Source of the DNA: a virus
Taxonomy: Duplodnaviria; Caudoviricetes
Direction: 5' to 3' (one strand)
Length of the DNA stretch: 64,000 nucleotides
Virus record (IMG/VR): IMGVR_UViG_3300027776_000009
Shown: positions 10,555 to 61,019 of the stretch, piece by piece
Layout: every line of letters begins with the position of its first letter
How positions within the stretch are numbered: position 1 is the stretch's first letter
Notes under the pieces: generated by a model
Databases searched by the model: none
Told to the model about the DNA's origin: nothing
Seen by the model: the letters and a program-made list of their open reading frames with translations, nothing else
Made by a program: the position numbers and the translations under genes

Positions 10555-11664
10555 GTGTACGATCTATTTCAAGACACGTTACCCTTGCGTCGTGTCTACC
10601 CGCATTCGCCATTATTCGAAAGAGTTCGTGACCCGCTCCGTCGCGATCTGGAGACCATTGTTAACCACCACCGGCAGAAAGAGGGATGGGTCCAAAACCA
10701 ACATCCCCTCATGAGGTTACTGGGAAGCATCCCGGTTTCCTTCAAACGCGATCCGCAGAACTACGTGGACGCTGTTCGTGATGTGGGATTACGCACCGCA
10801 GGAATGGTAGGGATGACTACCAGCGTTTCCTTTGGACGAATATGGTCACCCGGTCCGTTCTATGGTTCAAAATCCAAAGAGGTCCTCATTGCTCACGGTG
10901 AAGAGTTTGATGTTGATGCGGCTGGAAAAGACTGGAAGAATCTTCAACCTATTCAGGTTATGCGTCACCCGTATTCGGATCTCTCGATAGCTCGACCCGA
11001 TGGACAGTATCTCCCCGGAAGTCTTCCGGGAATATCTGTCATCAGCATCAATGTTCCTATGCTGGCTTTTCAGTATCGATGCTGGTGCGAGGACGCAACG
11101 GTATCTCAATATGACCAGAAAACCTACGTGGCAACCAGTCACTTCATGTACGCATACCCTATCACGAATATGGTATATAGCCATTTAGACGTGGCTTTGT
11201 TTAACCGTATGGCTATCACGTTATTTAGTGATGGTCAGTTGGGTCGATGGGTGAGAGCTCATCCGGTTTACGGGACAGATCGATCCTCCTGGGTGGATAC
11301 CGCGATTACCCAAACCCTAACGGGGGTTAGTCGTGCTTACTTGAGCTTTGATCAGCTTCTGGATAGTTTGCCGCTGATTACCGCGCCTAACCTAAGACAT
11401 CTACTGATGGTTCCAGACACGGCACCCACACGGCAAGTTTCTTGGGCGCTTATCCTAGCACTGCTTCCTTACATCCGTTTCTTGGTTCGAAGTAATCTCG
11501 GTGGGAGGAGCGGTCCTAATACGGCTTACCTCAATCGCATATGGATTTGGTTACGCCGGATTAAAAATGATCGCTTATTGGAAAATCGTTTACCTCCCGA
11601 GATTTATCGAGAGGTGCGAGAGATGATCGAGCGAGAGATAGTGCTTTACATTCCGGGGGCGTAA
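10555..11664 (+). CDS. Conserved chimallivirus virion protein (phiKZ gp52-like)
   Basis: 369 aa on the opposite strand between DNA polymerase and chimallin; TATG upstream at about 10521. Confidence 0.65.
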   Translation: MYDLFQDTLPLRRVYPHSPLFERVRDPLRRDLETIVNHHRQKEGWVQNQHPLMRLLGSIPVSFKRDPQNYVDAVRDVGLRTAGMVGMTTSVSFGRIWSPGPFYGSKSKEVLIAHGEEFDVDAAGKDWKNLQPIQVMRHPYSDLSIARPDGQYLPGSLPGISVISINVPMLAFQYRCWCEDATVSQYDQKTYVATSHFMYAYPITNMVYSHLDVALFNRMAITLFSDGQLGRWVRAHPVYGTDRSSWVDTAITQTLTGVSRAYLSFDQLLDSLPLITAPNLRHLLMVPDTAPTRQVSWALILALLPYIRFLVRSNLGGRSGPNTAYLNRIWIWLRRIKNDRLLENRLPPEIYREVREMIEREIVLYIPGA

Positions 11665-11672
11665 GCCTCCGG

Positions 11673-13826
11673 TTATGCCGCATGACCATAGGTTCGGAAG
11701 GTGTCTGAGATCATGCGGCGATACTTGTCATCCTCGCAATAGAGGCCGAGTGATGCCATCACTAGATAGAAGGGGCGTGTGATCCCCATGGCGGCCTTGC
11801 GATAATGCATGGCGTCACACATCGGAGTCGGCACCCCTCGTGCCTCGATGACTGTCTGCGGGACGTAGAACGTTTCGATGGACGTCTTACCCGACTTGAC
11901 AAGCCACTTACGAAAACGGTCTGCGAGGTCTTTGTCTTGCAAGTCCTCCACCCATTCACGGAGACGCGTTCGGTTCGGAAGTTCGACAGAAACCTTAGTG
12001 GCGTAATAGGGCAGAGGGGGGGCTTCACCGTAGCTTGGACCAAAGACTTCGTTCCAGAACAAATGGTTCTTGTAGAGATTGGCTTCTTCTTCGTCCGCAT
12101 AAGAACTGCTGTCCTTAATCTGTACAGCTCGCATGTACCGAGTTTCTCCTTTCTCCATACTGGTCACAATGTCTTGCTCCAGCTCAACTACCGGTGTCAA
12201 GATTTCTTGTGAACTGAAGCGCTTATTATCCATGATGCCTTCCAAGATCCATCGAATGTACTTGTGCAGTTTCTTGGTGACAATAGGAGGGGCGCTGGAG
12301 TCACGCAAGTGAACACCTTTGATTTCCAGTTCCAGTTCTGGGAGTACGTTTCCTTCCTGGATAGAACGAAGGGCGTAATAGTGTTTAGCCACTGGCGTTA
12401 AGGAATACACCGGGAAGAAGTATTCGTTCTTCATGGAGATACGGTGCATGTGACGCTTGACAATACCCAAATTAGCTGACATGAGTCCCAGTTTGTGTCG
12501 CACTGTTTGAGATGCCAAGAACGTAGTGGCATACGCAGTGCGATACCCTTCAATGCTAAAGTCTTCTGACCCCGTCATCCAATCTGCCCAATACTGATTT
12601 GTAAAGATCGTAGAGTCCGTATCCGAAGTCATCACCACTTCACGAATGATGGTGGGTAGAATCGCAATAGATGTCGGAAGGGTGGTGGGTCTGAAAACCC
12701 CTTTGATGAGTGTTTGGAAATCATCAATGGTGTTGGCGATGTTCTGGATAGTACCACCTAGTAACCCGTAGAGTTCCGGATTTTTGGTTTCCAGATCCTC
12801 CAATTGAATCCCTTGGATTCGATCAGACAGCAGCATCATGGCAAGGGTGAGTGCATCGCCTTTATGTTCCTTGATCAATGCCTCGGTGTTATTCACCGGA
12901 ATCGCAGCGGGTGTGGATAACGCTGATAGGAAGTCTCTAACCACCTGAGGATTGTGTTCCTTCAGGTGATACATGTCGCCAATATACACAAAGGCAGCAC
13001 GCTGCACACCAGTCATCCGGTCCGCATGTTCTCGGAAATGATCCATGTATTTGTCTCCCCGGAAGTAATACCGGGAAGACCTGCGAATACACGCCACGAC
13101 GTCATCCGGCGTGGGGAGATACAGGTTGTACTTGTCGATAGCGGCATGAAGTGCGTCGAAATCCGTGTAGACGGACGCGTTAATCATGCATGCTGTTACT
13201 ACCGCTGGACACCAGAAATGTCGATTCCCCGCCAGAAGCATTTCATTGTTTGCATTGGCATAGCTAGATGAGGTACGGCAGGTGCTGGTTAATGTTGGGT
13301 GTGACGACTTGTTAGCCAACGGTGTTGAGTCGTTTGCATGTGCCCCTGATAGGGAGTTGTTCAGAATCTTGACGGATTCTTGGAGTCCATCGTAATAGTT
13401 GGCGCGGGCGGCATCCTTAGCCATCTTGTACTTGAACTTGAGTTTCTTGAGTGTCCCGCGTCGATCCATATTACCTTGGGCAAACACGGCCAGTAGAGAT
13501 TCCTTCACGTCAGGACTAAGGTATCCTGTCAAGGAGGGTGAAAGAATGATCTTCTTCTCAAGAATCTTGGCGTGGTATTCCCGAAACGGGATGTCTTTCT
13601 TTTCACGGTCTCCGTTCTTACCGCGAACCAACGCACACACGCGACGTTCTTTCAATAGCTGCTGTTGACCGTTCAGACCATAGACACGGTCGTGTACGAA
13701 ACGATGTGCGGTCTCGTAGGGGATGTTTCTGAGTTGATGCAGGTACGTTGCGGATTGTTCGATACTCGCTGAAAGAATATCTACTTTTCGGTCATACGCT
13801 GCGTCGGGGTATATGAAGTGCGACAT
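11673..13826 (-). CDS. Family B DNA polymerase catalytic subunit (split polymerase, phiKZ gp50-like)
   Basis: KILNNSLSG (motif B), SDTDS (motif C), MKNE, KHY, KGV. No exonuclease domain. Start MSHF at 13826 after GAGG. Confidence 0.88.
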   Translation of the reverse strand: MSHFIYPDAAYDRKVDILSASIEQSATYLHQLRNIPYETAHRFVHDRVYGLNGQQQLLKERRVCALVRGKNGDREKKDIPFREYHAKILEKKIILSPSLTGYLSPDVKESLLAVFAQGNMDRRGTLKKLKFKYKMAKDAARANYYDGLQESVKILNNSLSGAHANDSTPLANKSSHPTLTSTCRTSSSYANANNEMLLAGNRHFWCPAVVTACMINASVYTDFDALHAAIDKYNLYLPTPDDVVACIRRSSRYYFRGDKYMDHFREHADRMTGVQRAAFVYIGDMYHLKEHNPQVVRDFLSALSTPAAIPVNNTEALIKEHKGDALTLAMMLLSDRIQGIQLEDLETKNPELYGLLGGTIQNIANTIDDFQTLIKGVFRPTTLPTSIAILPTIIREVVMTSDTDSTIFTNQYWADWMTGSEDFSIEGYRTAYATTFLASQTVRHKLGLMSANLGIVKRHMHRISMKNEYFFPVYSLTPVAKHYYALRSIQEGNVLPELELEIKGVHLRDSSAPPIVTKKLHKYIRWILEGIMDNKRFSSQEILTPVVELEQDIVTSMEKGETRYMRAVQIKDSSSYADEEEANLYKNHLFWNEVFGPSYGEAPPLPYYATKVSVELPNRTRLREWVEDLQDKDLADRFRKWLVKSGKTSIETFYVPQTVIEARGVPTPMCDAMHYRKAAMGITRPFYLVMASLGLYCEDDKYRRMISDTFRTYGHAA

Positions 13827-14124
13827 GATAAAGTCCTCGCTTACATCAGATAACTCAGTCTGTGAAAAAAAAAAGAGACGGCATAAACTCCCCACGGGCG
13901 TGGGGAGAATGGGGAGTTTATACCGGCAGCTTGACGGCGGCGGATCTGTGTAAAAAAGAGCCGGAGTGGATAACGCCGCGGGAGAGGGCACCGCATCACC
14001 ACACCTCCGGCTTAAGCTCGCTCATTTCAAGCGTGGCTGCCTAATGTGACACTTGGAGAATAGCGTCACATATACATACGGCGTATGTTAGAGAGCTGAC
14101 TCCCTCGATGGAGACTATCGCGTT

Positions 14125-14553: not shown

Positions 14554-14560
14554 GGTATCC

Positions 14561-17716: not shown

Positions 17717-17827
17717 TGGAGTATCCTCAATGGATGTATTCTGAAAAGTAGTATATATGCCACGCTCCGTGGCCTTTATGCTATAGGATGTCCTTATCTG
17801 TTATTTTCGACGGCGGGGTTTCTACGC

Positions 17828-20338: not shown

Positions 20339-20388
20339 CATTTATAACAGCATATAACCCCAGGGAGAGATCCCTGGGATTTATGTCG

Positions 20389-21803: not shown

Positions 21804-21897
21804 AGTGTCCTCGGTGGCAGAGTCTGTTTCTCAAAAAATCCAGTGAATCAGTTAAAAACAACATAAGTCCTCCCATGAGTGGGAGGGCAATTATGTC

Positions 21898-23055
21898 TTA
21901 CCACTTAGCGCTGGGGGGGAGTATGTCTTCTTGGGACACACTGGGTTGTTGAGTGCCGGCTATCACTTTATCAATAGCTGACCGCATTTCATCGGTAAAC
22001 GTGAAATGGTAAGCGTTAGGAGCCTCTCCTTTCCAAGTCTTCTTTACCGCGTTGTCCTCAGGATGGTTAATCGCGCCATCTATCGATGATCCAAAGGCTA
22101 ACACGGTGACAGTCTTCGGCGCAAAGCGTAGCCGGTCAGTACCTCGACTATGCCCTATCCAGATGTCGGCTGTTTTTGGCAGCGTATAGGGCTCACCCGG
22201 ATCAAAGGATACTTCGCAACCCGCTGACTCCAGATACCTGCGAATTGACTCATAGAACGCCTTAGCCGTCGGGTTTCCTCGAATATACTTCGGATTCCCT
22301 TGGATGATGACAGCAGTGAGGGTCTTATCCGTGCGGTCTTCTTTACTAGCGGTCAGCTTATCGTAGTGTTTCTGGATAAGCAGTTTGGCAGTATCTAGTT
22401 TCTTTTTGTCTGACGTGGTCAAGTTCTTGCCAGCGCGATTGATGTAAAACTGGAGCCGAGCGATCGCCTGTCGTTTATCCTTAGACGCCTTAATCAATCC
22501 ATTGGCAATACTGCTAGCGGATTTCTTAAAGAAGTCTTCAGGAGGATGCCATTTCTCTTTCTTAGTGACATCGTCGGACCACTTCTTACCTTCCATAGAG
22601 GGAGTTGTTGCCAACTCAATTCCCTTGGTGTTTAAGAAGTCAGCTACCTGAGCAAGGTTATCCAGCACTATAGCTCCGTTACGCTTAAGCATTTCAGCAA
22701 CTGCGTCAAGTGACCGACGTTCCCCCGTTGTCCAAGTTGTGCCCAATTCACTATCGAGCAAAGTGAATAGTGTCTGATTGGGTCTACGGTGACTATCGTC
22801 CACAACCTCAGCAATGGAGTAAACTCCTGTCATGAGCGGTGAGATGACATAGAGAGTATAGTCTGAAGATTCACGGACCTGTCGTTCGATAACTTGGTCT
22901 TCCGGTTTCCAGTCAGGCACGACTGGGTCAAACCACCCAACAGATACGATCAGTTCTTTCTTCAACCGATCCCGCCACTGACTGTTGTTACATGTACCAC
23001 CCAGAAAGACTTTCACCGATGAGGAGCTATAGTCCTCAGAAAACGTACCCGGCAT
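21898..23055 (-). CDS. Multidomain probable virion protein: nucleoside 2-deoxyribosyltransferase-like + DUF3175-like + alpha/beta-hydrolase-like
   Basis: VFLGGTCN.S.WR..L, F.PVV.DW, TGVYSIAE (NDT-like); KKWS.DV...L.FYINRAG.NL (DUF3175-like); IGHSRG. S-x-E sites at the domain borders. Confidence 0.7.
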   Translation of the reverse strand: MPGTFSEDYSSSSVKVFLGGTCNNSQWRDRLKKELIVSVGWFDPVVPDWKPEDQVIERQVRESSDYTLYVISPLMTGVYSIAEVVDDSHRRPNQTLFTLLDSELGTTWTTGERRSLDAVAEMLKRNGAIVLDNLAQVADFLNTKGIELATTPSMEGKKWSDDVTKKEKWHPPEDFFKKSASSIANGLIKASKDKRQAIARLQFYINRAGKNLTTSDKKKLDTAKLLIQKHYDKLTASKEDRTDKTLTAVIIQGNPKYIRGNPTAKAFYESIRRYLESAGCEVSFDPGEPYTLPKTADIWIGHSRGTDRLRFAPKTVTVLAFGSSIDGAINHPEDNAVKKTWKGEAPNAYHFTFTDEMRSAIDKVIAGTQQPSVSQEDILPPSAKW

Positions 23056-23112
23056 GTTACACCTCAGGTAAAGCAAAAAAAAAGAAGGGGATCATAAGAT
23101 CCCCCGTTCTAG

Positions 23113-23660: not shown

Positions 23661-23680
23661 CTTAGGTAGTATGTATCTGA
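23661..23680 (-). promoter_or_regulatory. Phage RNAP early-type promoter motif (representative copy)
   Basis: Minus strand CAGATACATACTACCTAAG. Related copies near 1605, 9680, 17747, 24560, 27625, 31995, 39183, 42030, 45625, 58290 and 60963, all upstream of minus-strand genes. Confidence 0.7.
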
Positions 23681-23713
23681 AAAAAAATGGCTTTAACGGC
23701 ATACAACGCAGGC

Positions 23714-24148
23714 CTAAGCCTGCATCAAGTATCCCAAGGTAAACCGGTAGGTATCATCACTGAGGCGCGTAAACCCCTCTACTGAAACTACGTTCATGGT
23801 GCGCTCAATATCACCAATGATTGCACAGAAGTCTTTCTGGACTTGGTCCCAAATGTTGCCATACCGCAGCTTGAGTTGCAGTACCGTTTCAGCCGCTTGA
23901 ACGATAAAACCGCCCGAGTCCTCATCGGGTTCACTGTAGAGCATCTTGAGATGGTTCAGAAAATCCGCATAGGCTTGTTCGCGTGAACTGCTATCAGGTC
24001 TATCGCATGCTAAGTCCTGAAACAAGGTTCTGACAATGTCGTCCACAGTAGCGCCGTACAGATCACGTTGGGATTCAAATCCTTCAGGGTAGTACAGAGG
24101 ACTATCTGGGATGGGAATCAGGCAGACAGCCGTAACGATTTCTGACAT
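23714..24148 (-). CDS. Hypothetical protein, possible dispersed member of the 14.6-17.7 kb family
   Basis: C-terminal RLSDDTYRFTL hairpin resembles array members. Confidence 0.55.
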   Translation of the reverse strand: MSEIVTAVCLIPIPDSPLYYPEGFESQRDLYGATVDDIVRTLFQDLACDRPDSSSREQAYADFLNHLKMLYSEPDEDSGGFIVQAAETVLQLKLRYGNIWDQVQKDFCAIIGDIERTMNVVSVEGFTRLSDDTYRFTLGYLMQA

Positions 24149-25110: not shown

Positions 25111-25245
25111 GGTAACTCCTAAGTACGTGTAAGACGAAATGTCTCATAACTAATACCGTGTGTGTAAAAAATAAGCGCATAACCCCCATATGGCCGAGGG
25201 GGTCTTCGGCCAGAGGTTAGCTCAAAGGGTTATACCGTCATGGAT

Positions 25246-25746: not shown

Positions 25747-25845
25747 GCTGGATCTCCCAGTTTGGTTTTGGAATCACGAATGACTCGTCGCATAGTATCA
25801 CATCAGCAGTTATTTTTCACTGACGATCCAGAGGTCTTCTTCCAG

Positions 25846-26520
25846 TATGTGCGCGAAACTCTATACCGCGCGCAGGTTCCAACTAGCGTGTGCGCATTCT
25901 GCGCATCCGCGTACTCTATACCGCGTGCGCGCACATCACGCCTGCGCCCGCTTCTTTGTAATACTACTACGTAGTATTACGTATAGTAAATTATTTATTG
26001 TTTTAGATTTATATTTTACTAACGTAAAATATCCCCTAAGTTAAGATTATAAATAATCTAAATTGATCACGAGGGGTCAACGACCCCGAAGTGCATCAAA
26101 ATCGATCTGACCAAGGTTTTTGCTCTGGCAAAAACACAAATCTGAACTCTGCCGCCGGGGTTTGAGCCCCGGCTGGTATTCAGATGGTTCGAATTTCGAT
26201 CAGATTCAGTCTGAAATCGTTAAAAACACGCAGTTTTTCCACCAGGGCAACTGCATGTGACAGCCGTCACCCCCAGAATCTATTCAAACACGGCCAGTGC
26301 CGCTACTTGTTTTGTGAGTACTCTTAGGGCGCGCGCGATCCTTCAGTAGCGCGGGCGTTAAGGAAGGCATGGGTTTCGTAACCCGTTTTCAGCCAAAGAA
26401 AAAACTAACACCCTAAACCTAGTTTGAAAATACCGCTAGGACTTCGTACGAGAAGATTCTAGCGGCATAAAACCCCCCGGGAGTACTAAGGTACTACCCA
26501 GGTATTTGAGGGGTCTTAAA
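25846..26520. other. Long non-coding element with direct repeats, AT-rich core and about 15 consecutive hairpins (origin or large structured RNA)
   Basis: ACTCTATACCGCG x2 (25858, 25913); inverted repeats at 25958-25980, 26011-26032, 26063-26099, 26116-26135, 26140-26185, 26230-26254 and 26433-26465. Confidence 0.6.
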
Positions 26521-26543
26521 ACGGCTCCCAGAGAATCATCAAG

Positions 26544-26969
26544 CTAGACGGACCCCTCAACCGTTTCGATGGATCGATCGTTCAGATTCCAGTGAATCGT
26601 TCCCACTAGCGCACCTTCGTCGAAAATTACCCCGAACCCTCGTGGGCTGGCCACCCACTGGACATCGTGTCGACACAAGGCGTTAAGCGCACTGGTGAGC
26701 GCATAGCGATCAATCCGGTTCTCGATACCAATCCGATCCAATGTTCGGAGGATGTCCCAGATCCCCGATCGGGTCAACGAGTATTCCAGGCTCCGGGAAT
26801 GCGAGTGCTGCTTCCAGCGGACGCGATCCAGAAGTTCATCCAGGGTGTTAGCACATGGCTCGATCAAGACCATGGCTCGCTTGATGTCGCAGAGGTATCG
26901 CCAGATGGCGATAGCGATCAACGCGATCAGACAGGTTATCACAACGGTTGGGATCATCTGGGTATCCAT
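26544..26969 (-). CDS. Hypothetical membrane-anchored protein
   Basis: N-terminal TM helix; GGAG RBS. Confidence 0.55.
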   Translation of the reverse strand: MDTQMIPTVVITCLIALIAIAIWRYLCDIKRAMVLIEPCANTLDELLDRVRWKQHSHSRSLEYSLTRSGIWDILRTLDRIGIENRIDRYALTSALNALCRHDVQWVASPRGFGVIFDEGALVGTIHWNLNDRSIETVEGSV

Positions 26970-28604: not shown

Positions 28605-28687
28605 TGTTATTTCTCCAGCGAATAGTGGTTGGTATCGTAATATGTTGCATTCTGTTTTTTCTCACACCCACCTCATGAGGATTTATC

Positions 28688-31505: not shown

Positions 31506-31570
31506 GGGCAAAAAACAAAGTGACATACAGCTAGGAGAGAGGGGTTACCTCTCTCCTAGCTGCTATGCCG

Positions 31571-35614: not shown

Positions 35615-35728
35615 GATATCCCCGTTGGGTTGTTAAAGTGTAGACACGTAGGATGTCCAAAAAAATAAAATCTAACTAGGGCATATGAAAAGGGGACCCA
35701 ATGCCCCTTTTCATGCATGGTGTTGTGA

Positions 35729-39643: not shown

Positions 39644-39700
39644 ATTCGTTCTCCAAAAAAGAAAAGGGAGGAACACCTCCCTTGGTTATGCTGCTATGCC

Positions 39701-41041
39701 TTACATCGCCTTCGGAATAGCGTCGATAAACGCATTGAAGTCGTGACGATTTTCAGACAAAGCCTGCGCCAGATCACACCCGGGGATATCTGAGAAAACC
39801 ACATCAGGGATCGACTTGCCAGGCCAGATCCGCGTGATGTAGTCAACAATGGCCTCGTGATGCAGATGCGGGATTTCAACGGTTACGTCCACCCGCCCCC
39901 AACGCAGGCAGGCAGGATCAACCTGATCGATTGTGTTAGTCGTCATGATGACAACCACATCATCCAGAGGAACCACACCATCAATGGCTTGGAGGAATCC
40001 CTGCAAAGAGCCCAGACTGTAACTCTTCAGCAACGACTCAATCGTCGAATCCTTTCCACCGCCTTCATCCTCGAGTGATAATTGACGCTTTGCCGGAATG
40101 ACCAAAGACCCTCCCAACTTTTCAGCTTCCCGGGCATCTTCAGCATCCGTATCACTTTCACGCTTTGCCTTCAGGCGCTGAGCTTCACCTTCCATACCGC
40201 GACGGATACAGAAATCCCCATTGGCGTTGAAATCATCCATGAACAGGATATCGCCAGGCTGAACCGATGAGATCGCCATGAAAAGCTGCTCTTCCGAGAG
40301 TCCGCTGGGGCTGAGGCGATTGATGTTGCTCTTGTAATGCGTTGCCAGCGCCCGTGTCAGAGAAGTCTTCCCGGTCCCAGGAGGTCCGTAAAGCATGATG
40401 ACCAACTTGTACGGGATACCCGTTTGAACATACCACTCACGCGCCGCCTTGAACTCATCAATCGCGCTGATGATCTTGTTCAACACAGCCTTGTCAATGG
40501 CAATGGTGTCCAAGGGTCGCGGCGCGACTTTGGTTTGATTGCTCCAGCCGTCCCCTTTCCAACTGTAGCTGTAGATGCGTTCACCGCGAGACTCCTTCAC
40601 CTGAAACTCTGCCAAGAGATTCAGCAAGGGTTTCTGGTCACGTCCATAGGTGCTGATCATGACCGTGTTCTGGGTCTCATTCGGCATCTTGTGCGTTTCA
40701 CGATTGAACCAGAACAACCGCCCCTTGTGCCAGAAGTAATACTTGCCGTTGGCTGGACCCAACGCGGTGAGTCGGTTCCAGTCCTCATCGCGATAGTAAT
40801 CCAGCACGATGTTCCGGATCTTCTTGGAAGCGGGATGCTTAAAGAACCACTGCATGAACGCGTAGAAGTTCGGTTCGTTTGAATACTGTCCGGTGGACAG
40901 CGTGAGGGTCACAGTGAGTTGGTCAGTGGTGAAGGTGATCAGCTTATCAGGGATGTTGCTGATCATCCCTTTCATGAAGTCCGATACCACATTAACCATA
41001 ACCTCCGACATCATTGTTGTCGGGGTGACTTTGTTACGCAT
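39701..41041 (-). CDS. BCS1-like AAA+ ATPase
   Basis: WY...GIPY, GPPGTGKT, FMDD, LQAIDG, MTTN, DPA.LR.GR.D; BCS1_N-like region (FWHKGRLFWFNR). Confidence 0.85.
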   Translation of the reverse strand: MRNKVTPTTMMSEVMVNVVSDFMKGMISNIPDKLITFTTDQLTVTLTLSTGQYSNEPNFYAFMQWFFKHPASKKIRNIVLDYYRDEDWNRLTALGPANGKYYFWHKGRLFWFNRETHKMPNETQNTVMISTYGRDQKPLLNLLAEFQVKESRGERIYSYSWKGDGWSNQTKVAPRPLDTIAIDKAVLNKIISAIDEFKAAREWYVQTGIPYKLVIMLYGPPGTGKTSLTRALATHYKSNINRLSPSGLSEEQLFMAISSVQPGDILFMDDFNANGDFCIRRGMEGEAQRLKAKRESDTDAEDAREAEKLGGSLVIPAKRQLSLEDEGGGKDSTIESLLKSYSLGSLQGFLQAIDGVVPLDDVVVIMTTNTIDQVDPACLRWGRVDVTVEIPHLHHEAIVDYITRIWPGKSIPDVVFSDIPGCDLAQALSENRHDFNAFIDAIPKAM

Positions 41042-41112
41042 ATTCCTCTCCTCGGTGGCATAAAAGTTTAGGTCATCACAGAGGATGTCCTAAACTGTGA
41101 AAAGTAACCAGC

Positions 41113-42389: not shown

Positions 42390-42460
42390 GCTGTATCCCC
42401 TGGTCTGGTCTAAACTATGTGTTCAGACGTTTTTTCTTACACCCCATGAGTGTGCCCGCA

Positions 42461-43675: not shown

Positions 43676-43707
43676 GCATGGGGCGGGTAAACCCGCCCCA
43701 TATGCCG

Positions 43708-44343
43708 TTACCGTACCTCGAAGTAGCTAATCTCAATCTCCGACGCCTCTACGGGTTTGCCCAGCGGGACACCGGGAGTATCCGTTACACTGCTGTACCC
43801 ATGTACGTATTCCATTTTGTGCTTGATCACGTCCCAAACAACATCAAGCACAGGCTGGTAATTGAAGATGTCCGGCAGTGCCTCAATCACCTTCTTGATA
43901 AAGTATTCCGTGGTGACAGCCTGCGTGCTTGTGAAGATAACCGTTTCACCATATTCAAACACGTTGGTGATATTGACTTGACCGGACATCTGCGGTACTT
44001 CACTTGCGCGAAGGTGTGCTACTGTCCGCAATCCCATTTTCGGGACAATGGAAATCTCCATCCGGCGAATCACCAACGGGTCACCATAGTTGGAACGGAA
44101 CTCCAAAGGTGACAAGATAGCTACCACTTGGTCTTCGCTGTAAATCAGCCAGCTATCTGCCTCTGCTCGATGCTCAATCGAAGTCTCGTTATCCATCACC
44201 CAGTACCGCGTTCCATCCTGCCGGACGTAGGGTAGATCTTTAGTGGGATTCGCAGCACGGACTCCCTTTGAAAATGCTGTGGAAAGAAGAGGAATAGCTG
44301 CAATTGCCTCTTTCATAACCGAGTCTTTGCTTTTGTTACACAT
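43708..44343 (-). CDS. Hypothetical protein; N-domain resembles 24579-24854
   Basis: ADSWLIY....VAILSPLEFRSNY parallels PGDWVVY....PVVMSDIQFKTLF. Confidence 0.5.
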   Translation of the reverse strand: MCNKSKDSVMKEAIAAIPLLSTAFSKGVRAANPTKDLPYVRQDGTRYWVMDNETSIEHRAEADSWLIYSEDQVVAILSPLEFRSNYGDPLVIRRMEISIVPKMGLRTVAHLRASEVPQMSGQVNITNVFEYGETVIFTSTQAVTTEYFIKKVIEALPDIFNYQPVLDVVWDVIKHKMEYVHGYSSVTDTPGVPLGKPVEASEIEISYFEVR

Positions 44344-44417
44344 GGTCGTTCTCCTACGAACGTTAATGAATTATTAAGTAGCGGCATAAAAGCAAGGGAC
44401 CCCCGAAGGGATCCCTC

Positions 44418-44836
44418 TTGTGGAGCGTCAGGGTTCCAGCCGCTATGCCTTACTGACTTATGATGATCCTCTGTGCGCACAGAGACATCTCTAGTTTCAG
44501 GCTATAACAGCATGTATCCGACGTGCTCCTTTACGCTGCCTCATGACAACGATTTCAGTGACCCGCGTTTAAGGGTCCTAAAGCATAGCCTGGGATGTTG
44601 ACAACGAGGTAAAGTTTGTAGCTCGTTGACATTGCGGTGGTCAGCCGCTTCATTCAACCGTACTCTTCTTTCACAATCCGGTAGATATGCGCGTATTGCT
44701 GTACGCGACTTTCGCTCATTGCGGCTACAGCCGCACCCTGACCAGGCGGCTCATGGATCGTGAGATCCGACATCCGCCACATGTCAAAACCGAAGTGTAA
44801 AAGACCAAACCCAAAGCCGAGGCCGATTAACGCCCA
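44418..44836 (-). ncRNA. Candidate tmRNA-like/structured RNA
   Basis: UGGGCGU/ACGCUCC-A acceptor-like pairing with G3-U, UAGCC-GCA resume-like site, many internal helices; T-arm and CCA degenerate. Confidence 0.3.
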
Positions 44837-46302: not shown

Positions 46303-46390
46303 CTCCCTATTCCCCACACTTTCGGGTGTGGGGAATATGCCGTCATAGCACGCCTCTACAGAGCTTACGGGCTCTGTAGAGGGTGTGTGG

Positions 46391-46805: not shown

Positions 46806-49007
46806 CTAACGACCCGGGAACCGCCGTGAGAGATTAGTCCCTCGCCAGGGACCGGGGCTCGCACGTGTTTGTATACGAGCCTGCGCCATACGATTACGCG
46901 CTGTCCGCGCATCTTCAAACAGTTTATCCAGCGTCATATAGCCTTGCGACCGTTCTGGGACACGCTCGTAAAGCGCTCTCATCCGGTGTTCCAACTGCTG
47001 AATGCGTATGGGGTCTCGTGTTTCAGAGAGTTCATCCGCGAGTTCTTCCAGTAAGAGTTTCGCCCGTGACTGCTGTTCATCCATGTAAGCATCGTACGGA
47101 GTCACCGCCTTCTTAACCACGCCTACGTCGTCATCAAACTCGCACGATTCCGACAAGGTGTTATCCAATCCATAGAACCGATGATTCTTACTGACGGTTA
47201 GGAACCAAACCCCTAGCAGCCAGGCAATGACTGTATCGTCGTGCAAACCATTCGTGTGATCAATGCGCCCATTCTTTTCAACAAGCGCGGTGATTTCATC
47301 AATGAGGGTTTTATCGCGGCAGTTCTTGGCGCATAGCTTGGCAGCGCGAAGCAGGACGTCCGTGTATAATGAACTTCGACTAAACTTACCCGACCCCGAA
47401 GTAGTAAACCCAAACATAGCCTTTGATAACGTAATGTGTTTAGGATCACGTCGTGAGAGGTTTTGTTGAATGTACCGATAGTCCTTCTCGTGCTCGACCG
47501 AATCATCCACGATTTGGTTGTAGATTCTTCGGAAGGGATCGATTCCGGCGGCAATTAACATCGTGGTAATCATGTCAATGATGGATGGACCCGATGAACG
47601 CCTTTCTGGAATAATGACCATGCGCTCATACTGGATCATTCGGTCTGCTAACCAGCGCGCAAAATCGTACAGATTAGTTTCGTTGACATTGGCGACCGCT
47701 AAAATCTCTACAGTGCGTGGATCCAAAAACACCAACGAAATACCATCCCGACCAACGGCATCGCTAGTATCAATGCCTACCACCGCGCCACGATCCGCTA
47801 ATAGTCCCGCTATTTCGTGTTCCTGAACATACCAACGAATGTTGTACCCTTCCGGGAAGTATTGGGTAAATACCGGTTCTGCTTCAGAATCCCGAATGGC
47901 TTTATTCAGCGAAGCTGAAAGCGGAGAACGCAAACTCCCCGATGTCCAAACGTTGAAGATATCGCGATCAGCCGCCTCCCCCGTCAGATCGTTTTCACGC
48001 ATGACGTTGTATGCCCACTCGTCAGTATACCCTAGCTGACGATGCGATAGTGTAATGTTGACCAACGGTTTGGTCCCCATACTACCACGTTCAACACGAC
48101 GGTGGAGCTGTGCTTCGTCTTCGGAATCCAGTAAGGATTCATTCCACGGGATCCCCCCATGAATCAGATTGAACGCGTACTTACCCTCACGGGAATCCAG
48201 CTTACCAGCCGTGGTCATAAAGACTGACCCATAAGGCATCCCCGCTGCTTTAGCTTCAGCGCGAGCCGCAGTACCCGCAGTGAGCATAGCAGGGATGGAA
48301 ATGTCTACATAGCTGACAAAAGCCACTTCGTCAATCTTACTCAACGGAGCTGTCAGTCCACGACCCACCTTCAGTGCTCCCGCTGGACTGTTCTGAGCCA
48401 CCTTGTAATTAATCCGGTTATTCCATTGCGTACATGCAATTTCGACGGTGTTATCCGGATCTTTCTTTGAGAAGGCTTGTAGATAATCAGGTAACAAAAT
48501 CCGCATCGTCTTAACACGTTCAACGTTTTCACTACGAAGCTCACTATCCTTGGTCAAGACGTTAATCAGCGCGTTACGTGCTCCGATAGTGACCAAATAA
48601 ACATCCAACATATCCGCCCCCGCCGACTTACCTGTCTGACGAGGTTGCACATTAGCGGGTGATACGTGAGCAAAGAAACACCAGTAGAAAGCAATGTTAC
48701 CACGATTCGCTCGAAAGGGTTTCCCATCCATAGACCCTTGAGGCGGGATACGCGCTACTTCTCGAAACCAGTACCACGGATTTCGGAAACATTCCATGGA
48801 GATCTTACTGCGTTGTTCCATGGATAGGTATGGACTGTGTGGGTCCACACCTTGTAATTCTGGTTGGTGCAGTGCAAGCAAAAACTTGTAGTTCTTAACC
48901 CCCATTTTGCGGTACTTCGCCGCAAGGTCAACAAATGTTCTGTTCTTGGTGTTATAATCAGGAATAGCAGTAGGATAGAGCTGCCAGTCTTTTTCAAAGA
49001 GGATCAT
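46806..49007 (-). CDS. terL: Terminase large subunit
   Basis: PRQTGKS, GRG, IDE, TTAG, GIDTS, ERRSSG, RIDH...HDD; start MILF after AGGAG. Confidence 0.93.
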   Translation of the reverse strand: MILFEKDWQLYPTAIPDYNTKNRTFVDLAAKYRKMGVKNYKFLLALHQPELQGVDPHSPYLSMEQRSKISMECFRNPWYWFREVARIPPQGSMDGKPFRANRGNIAFYWCFFAHVSPANVQPRQTGKSAGADMLDVYLVTIGARNALINVLTKDSELRSENVERVKTMRILLPDYLQAFSKKDPDNTVEIACTQWNNRINYKVAQNSPAGALKVGRGLTAPLSKIDEVAFVSYVDISIPAMLTAGTAARAEAKAAGMPYGSVFMTTAGKLDSREGKYAFNLIHGGIPWNESLLDSEDEAQLHRRVERGSMGTKPLVNITLSHRQLGYTDEWAYNVMRENDLTGEAADRDIFNVWTSGSLRSPLSASLNKAIRDSEAEPVFTQYFPEGYNIRWYVQEHEIAGLLADRGAVVGIDTSDAVGRDGISLVFLDPRTVEILAVANVNETNLYDFARWLADRMIQYERMVIIPERRSSGPSIIDMITTMLIAAGIDPFRRIYNQIVDDSVEHEKDYRYIQQNLSRRDPKHITLSKAMFGFTTSGSGKFSRSSLYTDVLLRAAKLCAKNCRDKTLIDEITALVEKNGRIDHTNGLHDDTVIAWLLGVWFLTVSKNHRFYGLDNTLSESCEFDDDVGVVKKAVTPYDAYMDEQQSRAKLLLEELADELSETRDPIRIQQLEHRMRALYERVPERSQGYMTLDKLFEDARTARNRMAQARIQTRASPGPWRGTNLSRRFPGR

Positions 49008-49061
49008 AAGCGTTCTCCTAATAGAGCAGATGTGGTGGTGTACCACCACATCTGCCATAGG

Positions 49062-54442: not shown

Positions 54443-54526
54443 GAATGGCGGTAGAAGTTAACATTATGATGTGTGTCCACCCACACATCGTACATAGAAT
54501 CCGCAACGCTATGGAGACATGCTCCC

Positions 54527-56911
54527 ATGAGTGATAATCTCAAGGCTACACCGCGGGCAATTCTGAGAGGTATCCGAGATACCACTCGCGCCCAAGTTAC
54601 ACCTGTTCCCGAACTGTTGCCGCAGCACCTGCCCCTTGTGTTTCACTTCATGGAGCGGGGCGATGCAACCACCCCTCATATTGCCATCAGCGACGAGTTT
54701 AACCAACTCTTCGGTAGCAAGTCGGTTGACCTGCAAGGCAAATACGCCAACCATGCGACGGTTCTTGCCAACCTGCAAACCAGTACCGGCAACCTGATCA
54801 TGTGGAAGCGCCTGAAGCCCGATGCCGCCAAGACCGCTATGCTGCGGATCTCGGTGGAAGTCATTCCCGCACTGGTTCCCGTTTGGGAACGTGAGCTCGG
54901 TACCGGGGCTTACAAGTACAACGCGCTGGGGCAACGTATCCAGGCAACCCACCTGGTCGACTCGACTCCCACCTATGTGGTCGGCCAGCGGCTGATCTGG
55001 CGCACGGATCTGACCCCGTATGCCACGAATGCGCTGAAAGCATTTGGTGGCGGGGCAACCATCAGTGACGTACGCGACGGCGCCACCACGTTGGATGAAA
55101 CCAACGCTCCGCTGTCCACACTGTTTACCAATCCTGCCTCGGGTGACGGTGTGGCAGTTAAGTCCAAAGTCTATCCTTGGATGGATTTGGAAGTTTCAAC
55201 CTTCGGTGATTACGGCAACAACGTCGGGGTTCGCCTGTGGGCTCCGAACGCAGCGGATCTGCTGCCGGGAAATCCGACACTGATGAATCAGATTCAATCC
55301 TACCTGTACCGGATTGCACTGATTGAACGACCGGACGCCGTATCGTCTTCTGTGGTGCAGGAAACTCTTGCAGGTGACCAATACCTCGATCTGTCGTTCT
55401 TGGACGGCATCGTGCACCCCGTGACCGCGCAGGATCTGTCTGTGGACAGCGCCATCATTGATCGCTACGAATCCAAGAACCTGTCGGGCTTCAACCCGGT
55501 CTACGGTCCCTTTGGTCGCGTTCATGTCTATCGTTCTCAGATTGCTGCCGTATTGCAACTGTTGGCGGATGGCGGCGAAATGGTTCGCAAAACCGCGAAC
55601 GGGACGGGTACACCGACGATCGGCGAAGGGGCTTACGACGAATCTTATATCCCGTTGCAAATCACTCCGACGGCTACCTTCAGCCCGCGCGGCGATAACT
55701 GGCGCTTTGCGACGACCACCAACGCTCCGATTCCGGAACATCGTCCTCTGCTGAATCCCTTCACGGGTAAGGATCAGTACGGAGTTCCCTATTACACCTT
55801 CGACGTGGAAGCTTCCACCAACTTTGGTGGCGCACTGATTGGTCCGAATACAGATCTCTTCGCAGTGGGTGGTGACGATGGTCTGCCATTGGATTCCCAT
55901 GGGAAGCCCGATAAGCTGAACATCCTGAAGCTGTATGACCAGTTGGTCGCGGCTGAACTCACCAACTTTGGCAACGTGGCAGCCACAGGCTGGGCGGGTA
56001 AGGATATGCTGAAGTATCCCTTCCGCTGTATCCATGATACTGGATTCTCGCTGTCTACCAAGATGAAGATGCTCATTCCGGTTTCACGCCGGAAGGATGT
56101 GGGCATTTTCTGGACCCCGCAATCCATCGCTGAATGGTCTGACGCACAGCATCCGTCGGCTGGCGGGAATGTCTGGAGTTATCGTCCGCTGAACACCGCG
56201 GCAGAGGACAACGCAATTGCCAGCATCCTGCGTCAGACGGCACAAGCTTATCCGGAATCGGAAATCTACGGTACTCCGTGTGTCCGCGCGGTATTCTGGG
56301 GTCGAGCAGGCTATCTGAATAACTCGTTGTACACAGGACTGCTCCCGCTGTCCGTCGAACGGGGTTACAAGATGGCGGCCTATATGGGTGCTGCGGATGG
56401 TCGCTGGGCATCAGGTCAGCGGTTCGATGAAAACCCTGGCAACATTGTGTCGCTCTTCCGCGATATCAATGTGGTTTACAGTGACGACGATCAAGCCGAC
56501 AGCGACTGGGAACAGGGGTTGAACTGGGTGCAATCGTTTGATACTCGGCAGGTCTTCTGGCCGTCGTCACAGACCGTCTATCCGGACGATACGTCGGTGC
56601 TGAACAGCGCTCTGATGATGCTGGCTTGCTGTGAAGTGGAGCTGGTGTGCCAGCGCGTCTGGGCTCGTCTGACGGGTAACAGCAGCCTGACGGAAGACCA
56701 GTTCATTGAACGCAGTAATACCCTGATCTCGGAAGCACTGGCTGGTCGTTTTGACAACAACTTTGTCTTCGAGCCGGAAACCTATTTCACCTCGACGGAT
56801 CGTCAGCTCGGCTGGCGCTGGTCCACCAAGGTGAAGATCTATGGCAACACCATGAAGACGGTGGGTGTCATGACGGTCGAATCCCATAACCTGTCGGAGC
56901 TGACGGCGTAA
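54527..56911 (+). CDS. Tail sheath protein
   Basis: PQHLPL...ERG, F..LFG, DTGF....K, C-terminal G.SW/KTV region; followed by the tube gene. Confidence 0.88.
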   Translation: MSDNLKATPRAILRGIRDTTRAQVTPVPELLPQHLPLVFHFMERGDATTPHIAISDEFNQLFGSKSVDLQGKYANHATVLANLQTSTGNLIMWKRLKPDAAKTAMLRISVEVIPALVPVWERELGTGAYKYNALGQRIQATHLVDSTPTYVVGQRLIWRTDLTPYATNALKAFGGGATISDVRDGATTLDETNAPLSTLFTNPASGDGVAVKSKVYPWMDLEVSTFGDYGNNVGVRLWAPNAADLLPGNPTLMNQIQSYLYRIALIERPDAVSSSVVQETLAGDQYLDLSFLDGIVHPVTAQDLSVDSAIIDRYESKNLSGFNPVYGPFGRVHVYRSQIAAVLQLLADGGEMVRKTANGTGTPTIGEGAYDESYIPLQITPTATFSPRGDNWRFATTTNAPIPEHRPLLNPFTGKDQYGVPYYTFDVEASTNFGGALIGPNTDLFAVGGDDGLPLDSHGKPDKLNILKLYDQLVAAELTNFGNVAATGWAGKDMLKYPFRCIHDTGFSLSTKMKMLIPVSRRKDVGIFWTPQSIAEWSDAQHPSAGGNVWSYRPLNTAAEDNAIASILRQTAQAYPESEIYGTPCVRAVFWGRAGYLNNSLYTGLLPLSVERGYKMAAYMGAADGRWASGQRFDENPGNIVSLFRDINVVYSDDDQADSDWEQGLNWVQSFDTRQVFWPSSQTVYPDDTSVLNSALMMLACCEVELVCQRVWARLTGNSSLTEDQFIERSNTLISEALAGRFDNNFVFEPETYFTSTDRQLGWRWSTKVKIYGNTMKTVGVMTVESHNLSELTA

Positions 56912-57810: not shown

Positions 57811-57817
57811 CGGTCAA

Positions 57818-57852
57818 CATAGAGGCTGGGCAGTTGCCCAGCCTCTATGCCG
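57818..57852 (+). terminator. Hairpin + TATGCCG 3' signal after the tube gene
   Basis: CATAGAGGCTGGGCA-GT-TGCCCAGCCTCTATG followed by CCG. Confidence 0.75.
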
Positions 57853-57893
57853 TATACCAAAAAAAAAAGAGTGGGACCCGAAGGTCCCGGATG

Positions 57894-58232
57894 TTACTCC
57901 TCATCCAGCCGGGCAAACAGCCGGCTGGATTTCGCGTCAATCCCGCCAAGGTACAGAAGCCCACAGGCTTCCTCCGGCTGGATACGCTCAATCAATCCAT
58001 TAAGATGACAGGCGGGGAAAACGCCTTTGGTGAAGTAAACACCGTTGAGCGGAATGTCGATGTCACCGTGAGCGATCTCAGCGGGGTGTCGCGTGACCAC
58101 CACGTCGCCGTCCTCCAGACGGATCGCATGGCCGAGGACCTTACCATTGCGGATAGCAACGGAGTCTAGGTCAGTGAAGCAGATAGGCTGATACCGCCCA
58201 TCGCGAGTATTGCCAGCATGGATAATTGCCAT
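57894..58232 (-). CDS. Hypothetical (likely early) protein
   Basis: AAGGAGG RBS; promoter motif at 58288-58305; terminator downstream. Confidence 0.6.
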   Translation of the reverse strand: MAIIHAGNTRDGRYQPICFTDLDSVAIRNGKVLGHAIRLEDGDVVVTRHPAEIAHGDIDIPLNGVYFTKGVFPACHLNGLIERIQPEEACGLLYLGGIDAKSSRLFARLDEE

Positions 58233-58366
58233 TTTCTTTGCCCTCCTTCGGGCGTGGTTAGTGTGAGAGATATTCTCACTTCTCTACCTAAGTGATATGT
58301 ATCTGAAAAAAACTGCATTTAGAGACAAAAAAGAAAAGGGATTGCTCCCTTTCCTTACTACGTTGC

Positions 58367-58870: not shown

Positions 58871-59117
58871 TTGTCTTCTCCAGAGAATCAGCATACCACT
58901 GCAAATGCATACGCTGCTCTTGTGTGGCCGTAGCATTGGGCGGTACCAGAACAATCCGGTACGCCCCACCTTCTACGGGGATTTTGAACTTTGCAGCTAA
59001 CTCCTTTTCAAACTCCAGAGCTAACCCCTTACTTGCACCGTGTTCACGACGCATACTCCCTAAGCGCGTAGTGTCTCGCACGCTTAGGGGTTTTTCTGCC
59101 GTTATAAGTGCAGTCAT
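58863..59117 (-). CDS. Hypothetical protein
   Basis: Coupled ORF. Confidence 0.45.
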   Translation of the reverse strand: MTALITAEKPLSVRDTTRLGSMRREHGASKGLALEFEKELAAKFKIPVEGGAYRIVLVPPNATATQEQRMHLQWYADSLEKTNV

Positions 59118-59569
59118 TCTGAACCACCCATCGCTGCCAAAATAGCGTCGATATCTTTCTGGTCCTTCTCACGCCCCAGTCGTTCCAACAACCGGCGCTT
59201 CTGACGCAAGCAGGCTTCGAGGGTGTAAACACGAACCCCATCGATGGACTCCAGATCTTCCCAGGTAGTACCAGCTTCTGTATGGAGATCCGTATCGAAC
59301 TCCGGTATCGGAAGAAGCATGCAGTCTTCGATGTAACCTTCCGAAACCGTTTTGCGGGATGCGGACATCTTTAAGTTATCTTCCAGCACACGCATGGTGC
59401 CGGCTGTGCAGCCAGCGTCCAAATCCATGGTAGTTTCTCGCAGTCCATGAATGATGAGAGCGCTTCCTCCCCCCAGCCAGACCTGACCGGGAGCCAGCTT
59501 GTAGGCCTCGCACATGGCCTTGTAACGATCAATGACTTCCTGACGAGTCAATGGGTGATCAGCTTGCAT
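59114..59569 (-). CDS. Minimal nucleotidyltransferase-fold protein
   Basis: GGSAL..HG.R.T.DLD and C-terminal K......REKD..D. Confidence 0.7.
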   Translation of the reverse strand: MQADHPLTRQEVIDRYKAMCEAYKLAPGQVWLGGGSALIIHGLRETTMDLDAGCTAGTMRVLEDNLKMSASRKTVSEGYIEDCMLLPIPEFDTDLHTEAGTTWEDLESIDGVRVYTLEACLRQKRRLLERLGREKDQKDIDAILAAMGGSE

Positions 59570-59589
59570 GGTGATTCTCCTGTGTGTTA

Positions 59590-60930
59590 TTACTGCGCCA
59601 GTGGTAAGTACGTATCCAACTCTCGGGTAAGAGAAGTAACACCGTTACCCACGGTTGTCACCTTGTTAGTTACCGACTTGATGGTGTTGGTGATACTGTG
59701 GCCGGAAAAGGCAGTCATCAGCAGGACATTACGATCCTTACAGACAGCTTTCAGCCGCTTGTTATCCACGTTCAACGGAAGAATGATCAAGTTAATACGA
59801 CCATTGTATTCCTTGCTAACCCGCTGCGCGGTTTCTGGAACTAAACCGACAATGACAACCTCGGGCAACGTCTTCACGTCAGGCTTCACCTTGGTAGCAA
59901 TCGGCGCTTCAGGCTTGTCATCCTTCGCCGGTTCAACAGAAACCTTAGGAGGTTCCATCTTTTCCAGCTGAAGATCTTCAAGATGCTTGATACGATTCAC
60001 AAGCGATGTGAGCACCATGTCGTATTGAGCATTTTCCTTCTTAGCTGCTTCCACAATTCCCATCATCCGCAACTCTAACCCATTTACCGAGTTACGAAAC
60101 TGTGCAACGGATTTACCAATCTCGGTAATCGTGGAGGGTTTAATCATCTCAACCAGTTTGTCCAGACGAGTTTCAAACTCCCCCATGGAATCCGTGACCA
60201 TCTTGACATCGCGAGTCAGCTCCACTACCTGTTCTTCCACAGTCAGCGGCTTTTCAGGCTCAGCAGGTTTCGGCATAGGAACCGACTTCACCGCTTCCAG
60301 AATGCGGGAATAGAGATGCACCCAAGCCGGAATACGAATCCTCGAAGCTTCTACCACCAGTGATTCTTGAAGATCAAAGTACAACTGGAACAGCACATCG
60401 TCTGACAGCGTATCGTAGTCGTAATTAACCTTCTCGGCAATGGCAACCGTAATAGCGGCATAAGGGTCAGCAGCAACATTACCCGTTTCAGAAGACTCTG
60501 TGGCTTCTTCAGGCTCATACCGGTAATCCCAAAGCAGCGTGCGAATCTTGGGAATGATCTTGAAGAAACCTTCATACTCCCGCATGACAGCTCTCAAGAT
60601 CTCCAGCCGTTGTGTGGGAGTCAACCCCGGCTTTTTGGATAGCAGTGCCTGCCACACCGGCTTCGGCAACATCGCTGATACATCAGGACCAATCCGGTAA
60701 TCGTCATAACCAACGCAGTTATATGCGATGACTAACCCGTCCGTTGTTCCCCGCGCAGTATGCCACCTGTGGAACGAACTATATTCCAGAAAGACCGGAT
60801 CGACTTTCCATCGCTCGTCTCCCTTGGTCATCGTTTCAATCTTCTTCCAGCAGGCATAGGCCGGAACAGCTTTACCCGAGAATGCCGTACGGACGGATCC
60901 GTTGTTGGTAAACACCTGTTTGTTGCTCAT
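59590..60930 (-). CDS. Multidomain protein: degenerate HNH-like N-terminus, coiled coil, DUF2325-like C-terminus
   Basis: Y.CW...W.....F..F..W; C-terminal VVIVG...T.FSGH...G.TSL. Confidence 0.5.
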   Translation of the reverse strand: MSNKQVFTNNGSVRTAFSGKAVPAYACWKKIETMTKGDERWKVDPVFLEYSSFHRWHTARGTTDGLVIAYNCVGYDDYRIGPDVSAMLPKPVWQALLSKKPGLTPTQRLEILRAVMREYEGFFKIIPKIRTLLWDYRYEPEEATESSETGNVAADPYAAITVAIAEKVNYDYDTLSDDVLFQLYFDLQESLVVEASRIRIPAWVHLYSRILEAVKSVPMPKPAEPEKPLTVEEQVVELTRDVKMVTDSMGEFETRLDKLVEMIKPSTITEIGKSVAQFRNSVNGLELRMMGIVEAAKKENAQYDMVLTSLVNRIKHLEDLQLEKMEPPKVSVEPAKDDKPEAPIATKVKPDVKTLPEVVIVGLVPETAQRVSKEYNGRINLIILPLNVDNKRLKAVCKDRNVLLMTAFSGHSITNTIKSVTNKVTTVGNGVTSLTRELDTYLPLAQ

Positions 60931-61019
60931 GAACGTTTCTCCACGTCGTTGATATTCACATCAGTAGTGTGTATGTAAAAAATAATGAAGGCATACGAGG
61001 AGGCCTAAGCCTCCTCGTT

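Follow-up and report, generated by a model that had tools for sequence, protein, structure and literature searches.

Hairpins followed by TATGCCG as probable phiKZ-type transcription terminators in a deeply divergent chimallivirus

We analysed a window of 64 kb (64,000 nucleotides) of IMG/VR record IMGVR_UViG_3300027776_000009, taken from a viral contig of 75,081 bp with 51% GC, in which GC-rich hairpins near gene ends are followed by the word TATGCCG in place of a U-tract. These sites are probably transcription terminators of the type described for phage phiKZ, carried by a genome that its gene content identifies as a new, deeply divergent chimallivirus. The motif is not new, since it has already been published for phiKZ; this phage adds a new example of it.

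Twelve such sites had been listed in an earlier note on the window, and all twelve were borne out when the sequence was re-read. Each consists of a GC-rich stem, a spacer of 0-7 nt that is mostly T, and TATGCC(G), with the variant tails TATGTCG at 20382, TATGCCC at 35685 and TATGCCT at 60995. The stems of the twelve are perfect or near-perfect and the loops mostly 4 nt long (GTAA, GAGA, TTCG, TTAG and others); across all sites, stem length ranges from 6 to 17 bp and the calculated free energy (dG) from -11 to -32 kcal/mol. About ten sites were found beyond that list, on the minus strand at 20354, 21865 (paired with plus-strand 21892), 25190, 31527, 46347 and 57821, and on the plus strand at 5665, 39687/39695 and 61021. 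The catalogue of putative terminator sites is:
5642-5671, plus strand: antisense-only site, hairpin + TATGCTG between two minus-strand genes, conserved in the relative L001
11653-11680, plus strand: predicted terminator of plus-strand gene 10555-11664, hairpin + TTATGCCG
13879-13907, minus strand: hairpin + TTTATGCCGT, then a T-run and CACAG, upstream of the DNA polymerase gene
20348-20388, both strands: two-sided, convergent gap; plus-strand hairpin 20359-20378 + TATGTCG, minus-strand hairpin + TATGCTG (20354-20348)
21859-21898, both strands: two-sided, between tandem minus-strand genes; TATGTTG on the minus (sense) strand, TATGTCT on the plus (antisense) strand
23697-23727, minus strand: hairpin with a stop codon inside its loop + TATGCCGT, then a T-run and CAGATACA
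25184-25212, minus strand: weaker member, hairpin + TATGGGG..TTATGCGC
26463-26502, minus strand: bulged hairpin + TTTTATGCCGC, 3' of gene 26544-26969 and followed by about 720 nt without a called gene
31521-31570, both strands: two-sided, convergent gap, stem of 15-16 bp; TATGCCG on the plus strand, TATGTCA on the minus strand
35680-35714, minus strand: hairpin + TATGCCC, upstream of the ribonucleotide reductase gene
39655-39701, both strands: mixed two-sided site; hairpin + U-tract on the minus (sense) strand, TATGCTGCTATGCCT on the plus (antisense) strand
43678-43707, plus strand: hairpin + TATGCCG, directly next to the stop codon of gene 43708-44343, which is convergent
44382-44420, minus strand: hairpin with a UUCG loop + TTTTATGCCGC, upstream of gene 43708-44343
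46308-46382, both strands: two adjacent facing hairpins in a convergent gap, the first + TATGCCG on the plus strand and the second + TATGACG on the minus strand, their tails overlapping as TATGCCGTCATA
57815-57852, both strands: two-sided hairpin of 14-17 bp, convergent gap; TATGCCG on the plus strand, TATGTTG on the minus strand
60990-61027, both strands: two-sided, between tandem minus-strand genes; TATGCCT on the minus (sense) strand, TATGCGG on the plus (antisense) strand

Hairpins were collected over the whole contig as perfect stems of at least 6 bp with ViennaRNA energies, and a TATG was counted when it started between -3 and +7 from the stem end. TATG followed 21 of the 59 hairpin-strands with dG <= -14, where 1.8 were expected (p = 1.5e-17, about 12-fold); at dG <= -9 the count was 28 against 6.0 expected, and about five of the matches lie within genes and look like the chance fraction. 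Longer words gave the same result within the window: 8 of 20 copies of TATGCCG lay at the same distance from a hairpin 3' end (0.3 expected), 10 of 37 copies of TATGCC (0.55 expected) and 13 of 45 copies of TATGYYG (0.67 expected), with p between 3e-10 and 8e-14. TATGCC is significantly over-represented after hairpins, the enrichment that the earlier note had named as a check. The other 12 of the 20 TATGCCG copies have no flagged hairpin, about 8 copies of the 7-mer are expected by chance, and the hairpin-free heptamer is not avoided within genes. Over 41 sites of the clade, at offsets of -3 to +7 from the stem, the consensus is tTATGCCGt.a. The three positions after TATG are C in 27, C in 29 and G in 28 of the 41, compared with about 25% each at other TATG words, and the CCG extension is specific to hairpin sites.

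Many of the hairpins are two-sided, with CATA 5' of the stem and TATG 3' of it (20348-20388, 21859-21898, 31521-31570, 57815-57852 and 60990-61027). The CATA flank is absent from the one-sided sites, so the tail is directional and no mere extension of the stem.

Orientation was counted on a gene map from our own codon-usage caller. The description of the sites as lying right after stop codons on the transcribed strand held for 10 of the 12 originally listed, with the stop 10-75 nt upstream (the distance at 26469 was measured by hand from the gene map), and failed at 13885 and 44388, where the nearest confident stop is more than 200 nt away. Of 24 intergenic sites, 18 lie downstream of a gene on its coding strand, and nine of the 18 are at convergent junctions. 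The motif is present on the plus strand of each of the six convergent gaps and on the minus strand of four as well; since no promoter is needed at such junctions, the tail appears to belong to the stop signal. Only nine of the 24 face a downstream gene, at tandem positions 45-160 nt upstream of a co-directional gene, and the other 15 are directed at the 3' end of an opposing gene or are antisense. Six antisense sites occur within tandem gene pairs; in four of these the same hairpin has a tail on its sense side (TATG or a T-run), and we class these four as bidirectional terminators. The ATG of TATG was also considered as a start codon and rejected, there being no Shine-Dalgarno sequence and a hairpin in its place.

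Chimallin, an RNA polymerase (RNAP) subunit, the divergent DNA polymerase and the tail sheath were all matched in the contig (PHROG/Pfam), and the first three bear out the earlier assignment to the phiKZ-like, nucleus-forming phages. On its gene content the contig is a chimallivirus, a nucleus-forming phiKZ-like jumbo phage, and because its chimallin shares no more than 27.5% identity with that of any phage isolate it is placed on a deep, divergent and uncultured branch. Genes with PHROG matches are:
6303-7724, minus strand: RNAP subunit
7789-9660, minus strand: chimallin
11673-13991, minus strand: divergent DNA polymerase
32021-35614, minus strand: ribonucleotide reductase
46806-49058, minus strand: large terminase
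54473-56911, plus strand: tail sheath

When isolate phages were searched for near-identity to the region of the ribonucleotide reductase gene, none matched, and a scan of IMG/VR with the DNA polymerase as a single protein confirmed nothing. Metagenomic relatives (L001/L002, L003, L004, L010 and L011) were reached via the DNA polymerase, through the protein database and by looking up contigs. Public wastewater, sludge and freshwater runs contain this DNA or a near-identical version of it, and four metatranscriptome runs contain a strain about 97% identical, as assembled contigs (some of 15-60 kb, with both strands spanned) that carry no RNA-end, strand or expression information; their breaks near 13872-13908 coincide with a variable T-run.

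The DNA polymerase locus shows how tail and stem have fared over this divergence. At the site orthologous to 13879-13907, TTATGCCGT is kept in L001, L003, L004 and L010, and TTATGCC in L011. TTATGCC is kept upstream of the polymerase gene in five relatives at polymerase identities of 40-48%, including one genome of 35% GC, while the stems at this syntenic position are unrelated (CTCCCCAC, AGCCGCTC, CCCGCAGC, CTACCCGAG and GAGGAGC). At the other end of the gene, the tail of the 11653-11680 site overlaps the last codons (Ala-Ala-stop) of the convergent polymerase gene, so that these codons, GCGGCATAA, are the reverse complement of the convergent gene's tail. The codons GCG GCA TAA (TAG in L001/L002) are found at the polymerase C-terminus in four members (the window, L001/L002, L003 and L004), and GCGGCATAA/G is conserved there at the nucleotide level, with L003 and L004 only 46-48% identical to the window in this protein. 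The turnover of the stem with the tail kept, together with the frozen last codons of the polymerase, gives direct evidence at the sequence level that selection acts on the tail as a sequence and on the hairpin as a structure. Counts of TATG after hairpin-strands in the relatives agree: 7 of 30 in L003 (0.8 expected), 8 of 26 in L004 (0.95 expected), 5 of 12 in L010 (0.7 expected) and 4 of 14 in L011 (1.0 expected).

The same scan was applied to isolate phages. TATG followed 20 of 45 hairpin-strands in phiKZ 100-150 kb (2.2 expected), 13 of 39 in Erwinia phage RAY (1.2 expected), where the tail is TATGCCG as here, and, more weakly, 5 of 34 in EL (0.7 expected); the T4 control showed no enrichment (1 of 15, 0.9 expected). 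The conservation in related phages that the earlier note proposed to look for is thus seen in three isolates and four metagenomic relatives. Sense or convergent sites outnumbered antisense sites by 16 to 7 in phiKZ, 15 to 1 in RAY and 8 to 0 in EL, giving 39 sense or convergent, 8 antisense and 0 divergent-gap sites in the combined samples.

In phiKZ itself, 133 termination regions have been mapped by ONT-cappable-seq, 61 of which share a stem-loop followed by TTAT, and MEME applied to the 3' ends gave the terminator consensus BCCYCCCCHWWDGGGRRGGBYTTATKYYGT (Putzeys et al. 2024, microLife, PMC10914365). Motif A of phage 201phi2-1 (n = 59) resembles the phiKZ motif, and eight terminators spanning the motifs of that phage lowered read-through in uninfected Pseudomonas in a terminator trap (PMC11512511). 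Both published motifs share with the sites here a GC-rich stem-loop followed by TTAT(G/T)YYGT where genes end, in many cases with two-sided forms between genes that converge, and both phages belong to the same family as the window phage and have their own RNAPs. In the window, the tail TTATGCCGT fits TTATKYYGT close to the stem, with a GC-rich stem-loop directly 5' of it, located 3' of genes and two-sided at convergent junctions, in a chimallivirus genome. The differences from phiKZ are that the tail is almost fixed as TATGCCG, where phiKZ has TATGYYG with many T, in a genome of 51% GC; that the stems depart from the single CCYCCCC/GGGRGG type; and that RNA 3' ends were mapped in phiKZ, whereas the window phage is known from its sequence.

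In the terminator reading, the phage's own multisubunit RNAP would read past the stop codon and a stable GC-rich hairpin, often with a GNRA or UUCG loop, would form in the nascent RNA. The short tail (U)UAUGYYG(U) would then stand in for the usual U-tract. Its U/A-rich UUAU may give a weak RNA:DNA hybrid beside the stem. About 7-10 nt past the GC core, YYG may leave a pyrimidine at the RNA 3' end with G as the next nucleotide to be added, and the hairpin would then release the transcript. Pausing of multisubunit polymerases and intrinsic release are both found at sites of this sort. The two-sided CATA-hairpin-TATG form would halt polymerases arriving from either side where genes converge and would suppress antisense transcription within gene arrays; at tandem junctions a separate promoter-like element, a T-run and ACA, comes next. 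A canonical intrinsic terminator likewise has a stable GC hairpin right past the gene, release expected a few nt beyond the stem, and two-sided forms between convergent genes. It differs in its U-tract, replaced here by a heteropolymeric word with 2-3 U beside the stem and a nearly invariant GYYG, which is conserved as sequence where a plain U-tract is not. The class II signal of T7 RNA polymerase (ATCTGTT) is similar in principle only, in that a phage polymerase answers a conserved short word; its sequence and polymerase family are unrelated, and it needs no hairpin, while here the hairpin is always present. The earlier note had proposed a terminator or processing site for the phage RNAPs. 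The terminator position stands, but specificity for the phage polymerases is not supported, since the 201phi2-1 terminators also reduce read-through in the uninfected host and the signal therefore need not be phage-polymerase-specific.

Several points weigh against this assignment. For the window phage the role is deduced from sequence, 3' ends having been mapped only in relatives, and the published 3' ends could be hairpin-protected processed ends and not points of termination. We infer which polymerase responds, and the pause, weak-hybrid and release mechanics, from general knowledge of RNAPs. The scan of Goslar 1-40 kb gave 2 of 45 hairpin-strands where 1.1-1.8 were expected, with one perfect site at 3506, so that either the motif is not universal in the family or our stem criteria miss Goslar's. 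The six sites on the antisense strand of tandem gene pairs fit less well, and two of them (5665 and 36808) lack a recognisable sense-side tail. At the nine tandem sites TATG is equally readable as part of the next gene's promoter, and 7 of 10 T-run+ACA elements, among them two in hairpin-less divergent regions, have a TATG that precedes the T-run by 6-16 nt.

Ordinary hairpin + U-tract terminators coexist with the TATG class, as the earlier note had stated, and were confirmed at five places, all on the minus strand, with hairpin positions 7749-7778, 23086-23105, 39664-39683, 57873-57888 and 58331-58356. Besides the mixed site at 39655-39701 these are:
7739-7778, minus strand: hairpin + U-tract 3' of the chimallin gene
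23076-23105, minus strand: hairpin + U-tract
57859-57888, minus strand: hairpin + U-tract, in tandem with the 57815-57852 hairpin
58327-58356, minus strand: hairpin + U-tract

A true T-run follows only 5-6 other hairpins in the contig, and the TATG-class tail, (T)TATGCCG, falls short of a canonical U-tract (about five or more U within 8-9 nt past the stem). The idea that the two classes divide early from late genes was considered and showed no clear split; TATG-class ends are found at replication genes (the DNA polymerase region, ribonucleotide reductase) and structural genes (the sheath operon, a head protein) alike. The chimallin gene ends in a U-tract here and in TATGCCC in RAY. At gene 57894-58232 (minus strand) the two types stand in tandem within 57815-57888, a small hairpin + T10 first and then the large two-sided hairpin + TATGTTG.

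The tail shares its core with a promoter. The phiKZ late promoter has a TATG core with G as +1, as the earlier note had said, and its activity depends on downstream sequence (Yakunina 2015, PMC4666361); the beta-like subunit GP123 of the non-virion RNAP (nvRNAP) binds non-template TATG, in a pocket that includes Phe151, His185, His331, Tyr399 and Tyr406 among its residues and is reported to be incomplete in the transcribing complex (PMC12809450). This common core, the stem turnover and the frozen protein codons argue that the tail is read as sequence and does not merely weaken the hybrid. An extension of the terminator reading, which we consider doubtful, is that TATG is a shared start and stop word: the promoter pocket of an elongating nvRNAP, behind the RNA hairpin, would read non-template TATG, leading to a sequence-specific pause and release, with possible restart at the G in tandem junctions. 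Because TATG and YYG persist from phiKZ to a clade about 25% identical, this might be an ancestral, polymerase-intrinsic code of the Chimalliviridae. The incomplete pocket of the transcribing complex counts slightly against an elongating nvRNAP reading TATG. In the 75-kb contig, which covers only part of the genome, a search gave no homologue of phiKZ gp123, the subunit with the TATG pocket (best E 0.007 over 37 aa).

An unlikely alternative to termination by the tail is that the hairpin alone ends the transcript and that TATG is an nvRNAP late-promoter core, with its G at +1, from which transcription of the downstream gene begins or resumes; CCG would then be a conserved initially transcribed sequence. 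The identity of the core, the effect of downstream sequence on promoter activity (PMC4666361), the binding of non-template TATG by the beta-like subunit (PMC12809450) and the nine tandem sites 45-160 nt upstream of a co-directional gene would all suit it, as would the occurrence of TATG about 10 nt before T-run+ACA in the two hairpin-less divergent regions. As a main role, however, the re-initiation raised in the earlier note is contradicted by the 15 of 24 intergenic sites that would fire antisense or into the 3' end of an opposing gene, by the motif in all six convergent gaps, and by the complete lack of hairpin+TATG in the divergent gaps of the phiKZ, RAY and EL samples; moreover, the phiKZ motif was derived from 3' ends. 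The divergent, promoter-only regions of the window have TATGTAG, TATGTTG, TATGTGT and TATGTAC without a hairpin and no TATGCCG, and are similar to the phiKZ late promoter P119L, which reads TGCTATGTAGAC. P119L shares the TATG core on the non-template strand, but it has no upstream hairpin and continues as TATGTAG; like the promoter-only regions here, it carries a TATGT/TATGA-type word. The word at issue stands after hairpins, has the CCG extension and in most cases is directed away from any gene start. Restart from TATG is possible at tandem sites only.

Still less probable is an RNA processing or stability element, in which the hairpin would shield the mRNA 3' end from exonucleases and the tail would be cut by a host or phage endoribonuclease, the mapped ends being processed ones. 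GNRA- and UUCG-type loops on very stable stems are typical of protective RNA hairpins, the bias in strand and gene orientation would be equally expected, and long-read mapping of 3' ends is blind to the difference between termination and processing. RNase E sites, on the other hand, are AU-rich and unlike the conserved GYYG core, and the motif is kept across phages of differing hosts (Pseudomonas, Erwinia and wastewater hosts). The reduction of downstream expression by the eight 201phi2-1 terminators in uninfected cells fits termination, though cleavage could do likewise.

It is hardly credible that the motif is an mRNA tag for export from the phage nucleus, for which the earlier note had allowed, or that it is bound as double-stranded DNA by a termination or roadblock protein of the phage. 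The lack of a known mRNA export mechanism in chimalliviruses (PMC12908238), the family specificity of the motif, which T4 lacks, and the antisense-only sites, which would suit a strand-independent DNA-binding factor, speak for these readings, but no protein or assay ties 3' hairpins to export, no supporting evidence was found for a tag, ChmC, the one export-linked RNA-binding protein studied, binds near start codons with no motif (PMC11077065), genes that end in a U-tract (such as chimallin) or lie inside operons would go untagged, and the strong orientation bias speaks against a purely DNA-level site.

The published picture of phiKZ is unchanged by these findings. Their remaining interest lies in the tail, which is conserved across the family and coincides with the promoter core. 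Purified phiKZ nvRNAP exists, which makes the reading of the tail as sequence directly testable. For annotation, uncultured chimalliviruses gain an inexpensive, strand-specific marker of where transcription units end, and the motif holds at 35% GC and at DNA polymerase identities of 40-48%.

Other intergenic elements were noted in the window, in which Rfam and tRNA scans gave no matches. The T-run+ACA element recurs 10-75 nt upstream of about ten gene starts as a stretch of 6-10 T with (C)ACA, CAGA(TACA) or CTYACACCC after it, for example at 13855-13878, 23670-23690, 60965-60985 and 5610-5640 on the minus strand and at 28650-28675 and 42430-42455 on the plus strand. It is also found upstream of the DNA polymerase gene in L001, L004 and L010, and looks like a promoter class of this clade, perhaps early or middle. 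The word (A/T)GGACATCCT precedes the starts of three minus-strand genes by 36-69 nt (17785-17794, 35650-35659 and 41082-41091); its enrichment window-wide is borderline, with 10 occurrences at one mismatch against 4.1 expected. As a candidate extra motif, AGGACATCCT was likewise borderline in the window (10 matches, 4.1 expected, a count reached in 1 of 100 shuffles).

Just 5' of the Shine-Dalgarno sequence of the polymerase gene (window 13827-13850, minus strand) stands the conserved word TATCTGATGTA, with counterparts at about 4235-4260 in L001 and about 9975-9995 in both L003 and L004 (TATTTGATGTA in L004). The relatives that keep it have polymerases 46-89% identical to that of the window, L001 being the one at 89%. 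It may be an operator in the 5' untranslated region or a promoter element. On the other side of the hairpin+TATGCCG site, about 215 nt (13908-14124) separate it from an SH3-domain gene; this stretch has a hairpin of its own at 14044-14071 and could be a small transcript ending at the terminator, and in L003 two small open reading frames take its place.

Downstream of the 26469 terminator, the roughly 800 nt at 25747-26543 have no convincing open reading frame, no tRNA or Rfam match, and strong hairpins at 26073-26087 and 26154-26173; they may hold a non-coding RNA or small genes. The large subunit of ribonucleotide reductase (32021-35614, minus strand) is 1197 aa long, with PHROG matches at residues 33-291 (N-terminal) and 654-1193 (C-terminal), and the approximately 360 residues in between, which have no match, could represent an insertion, for instance an intein.

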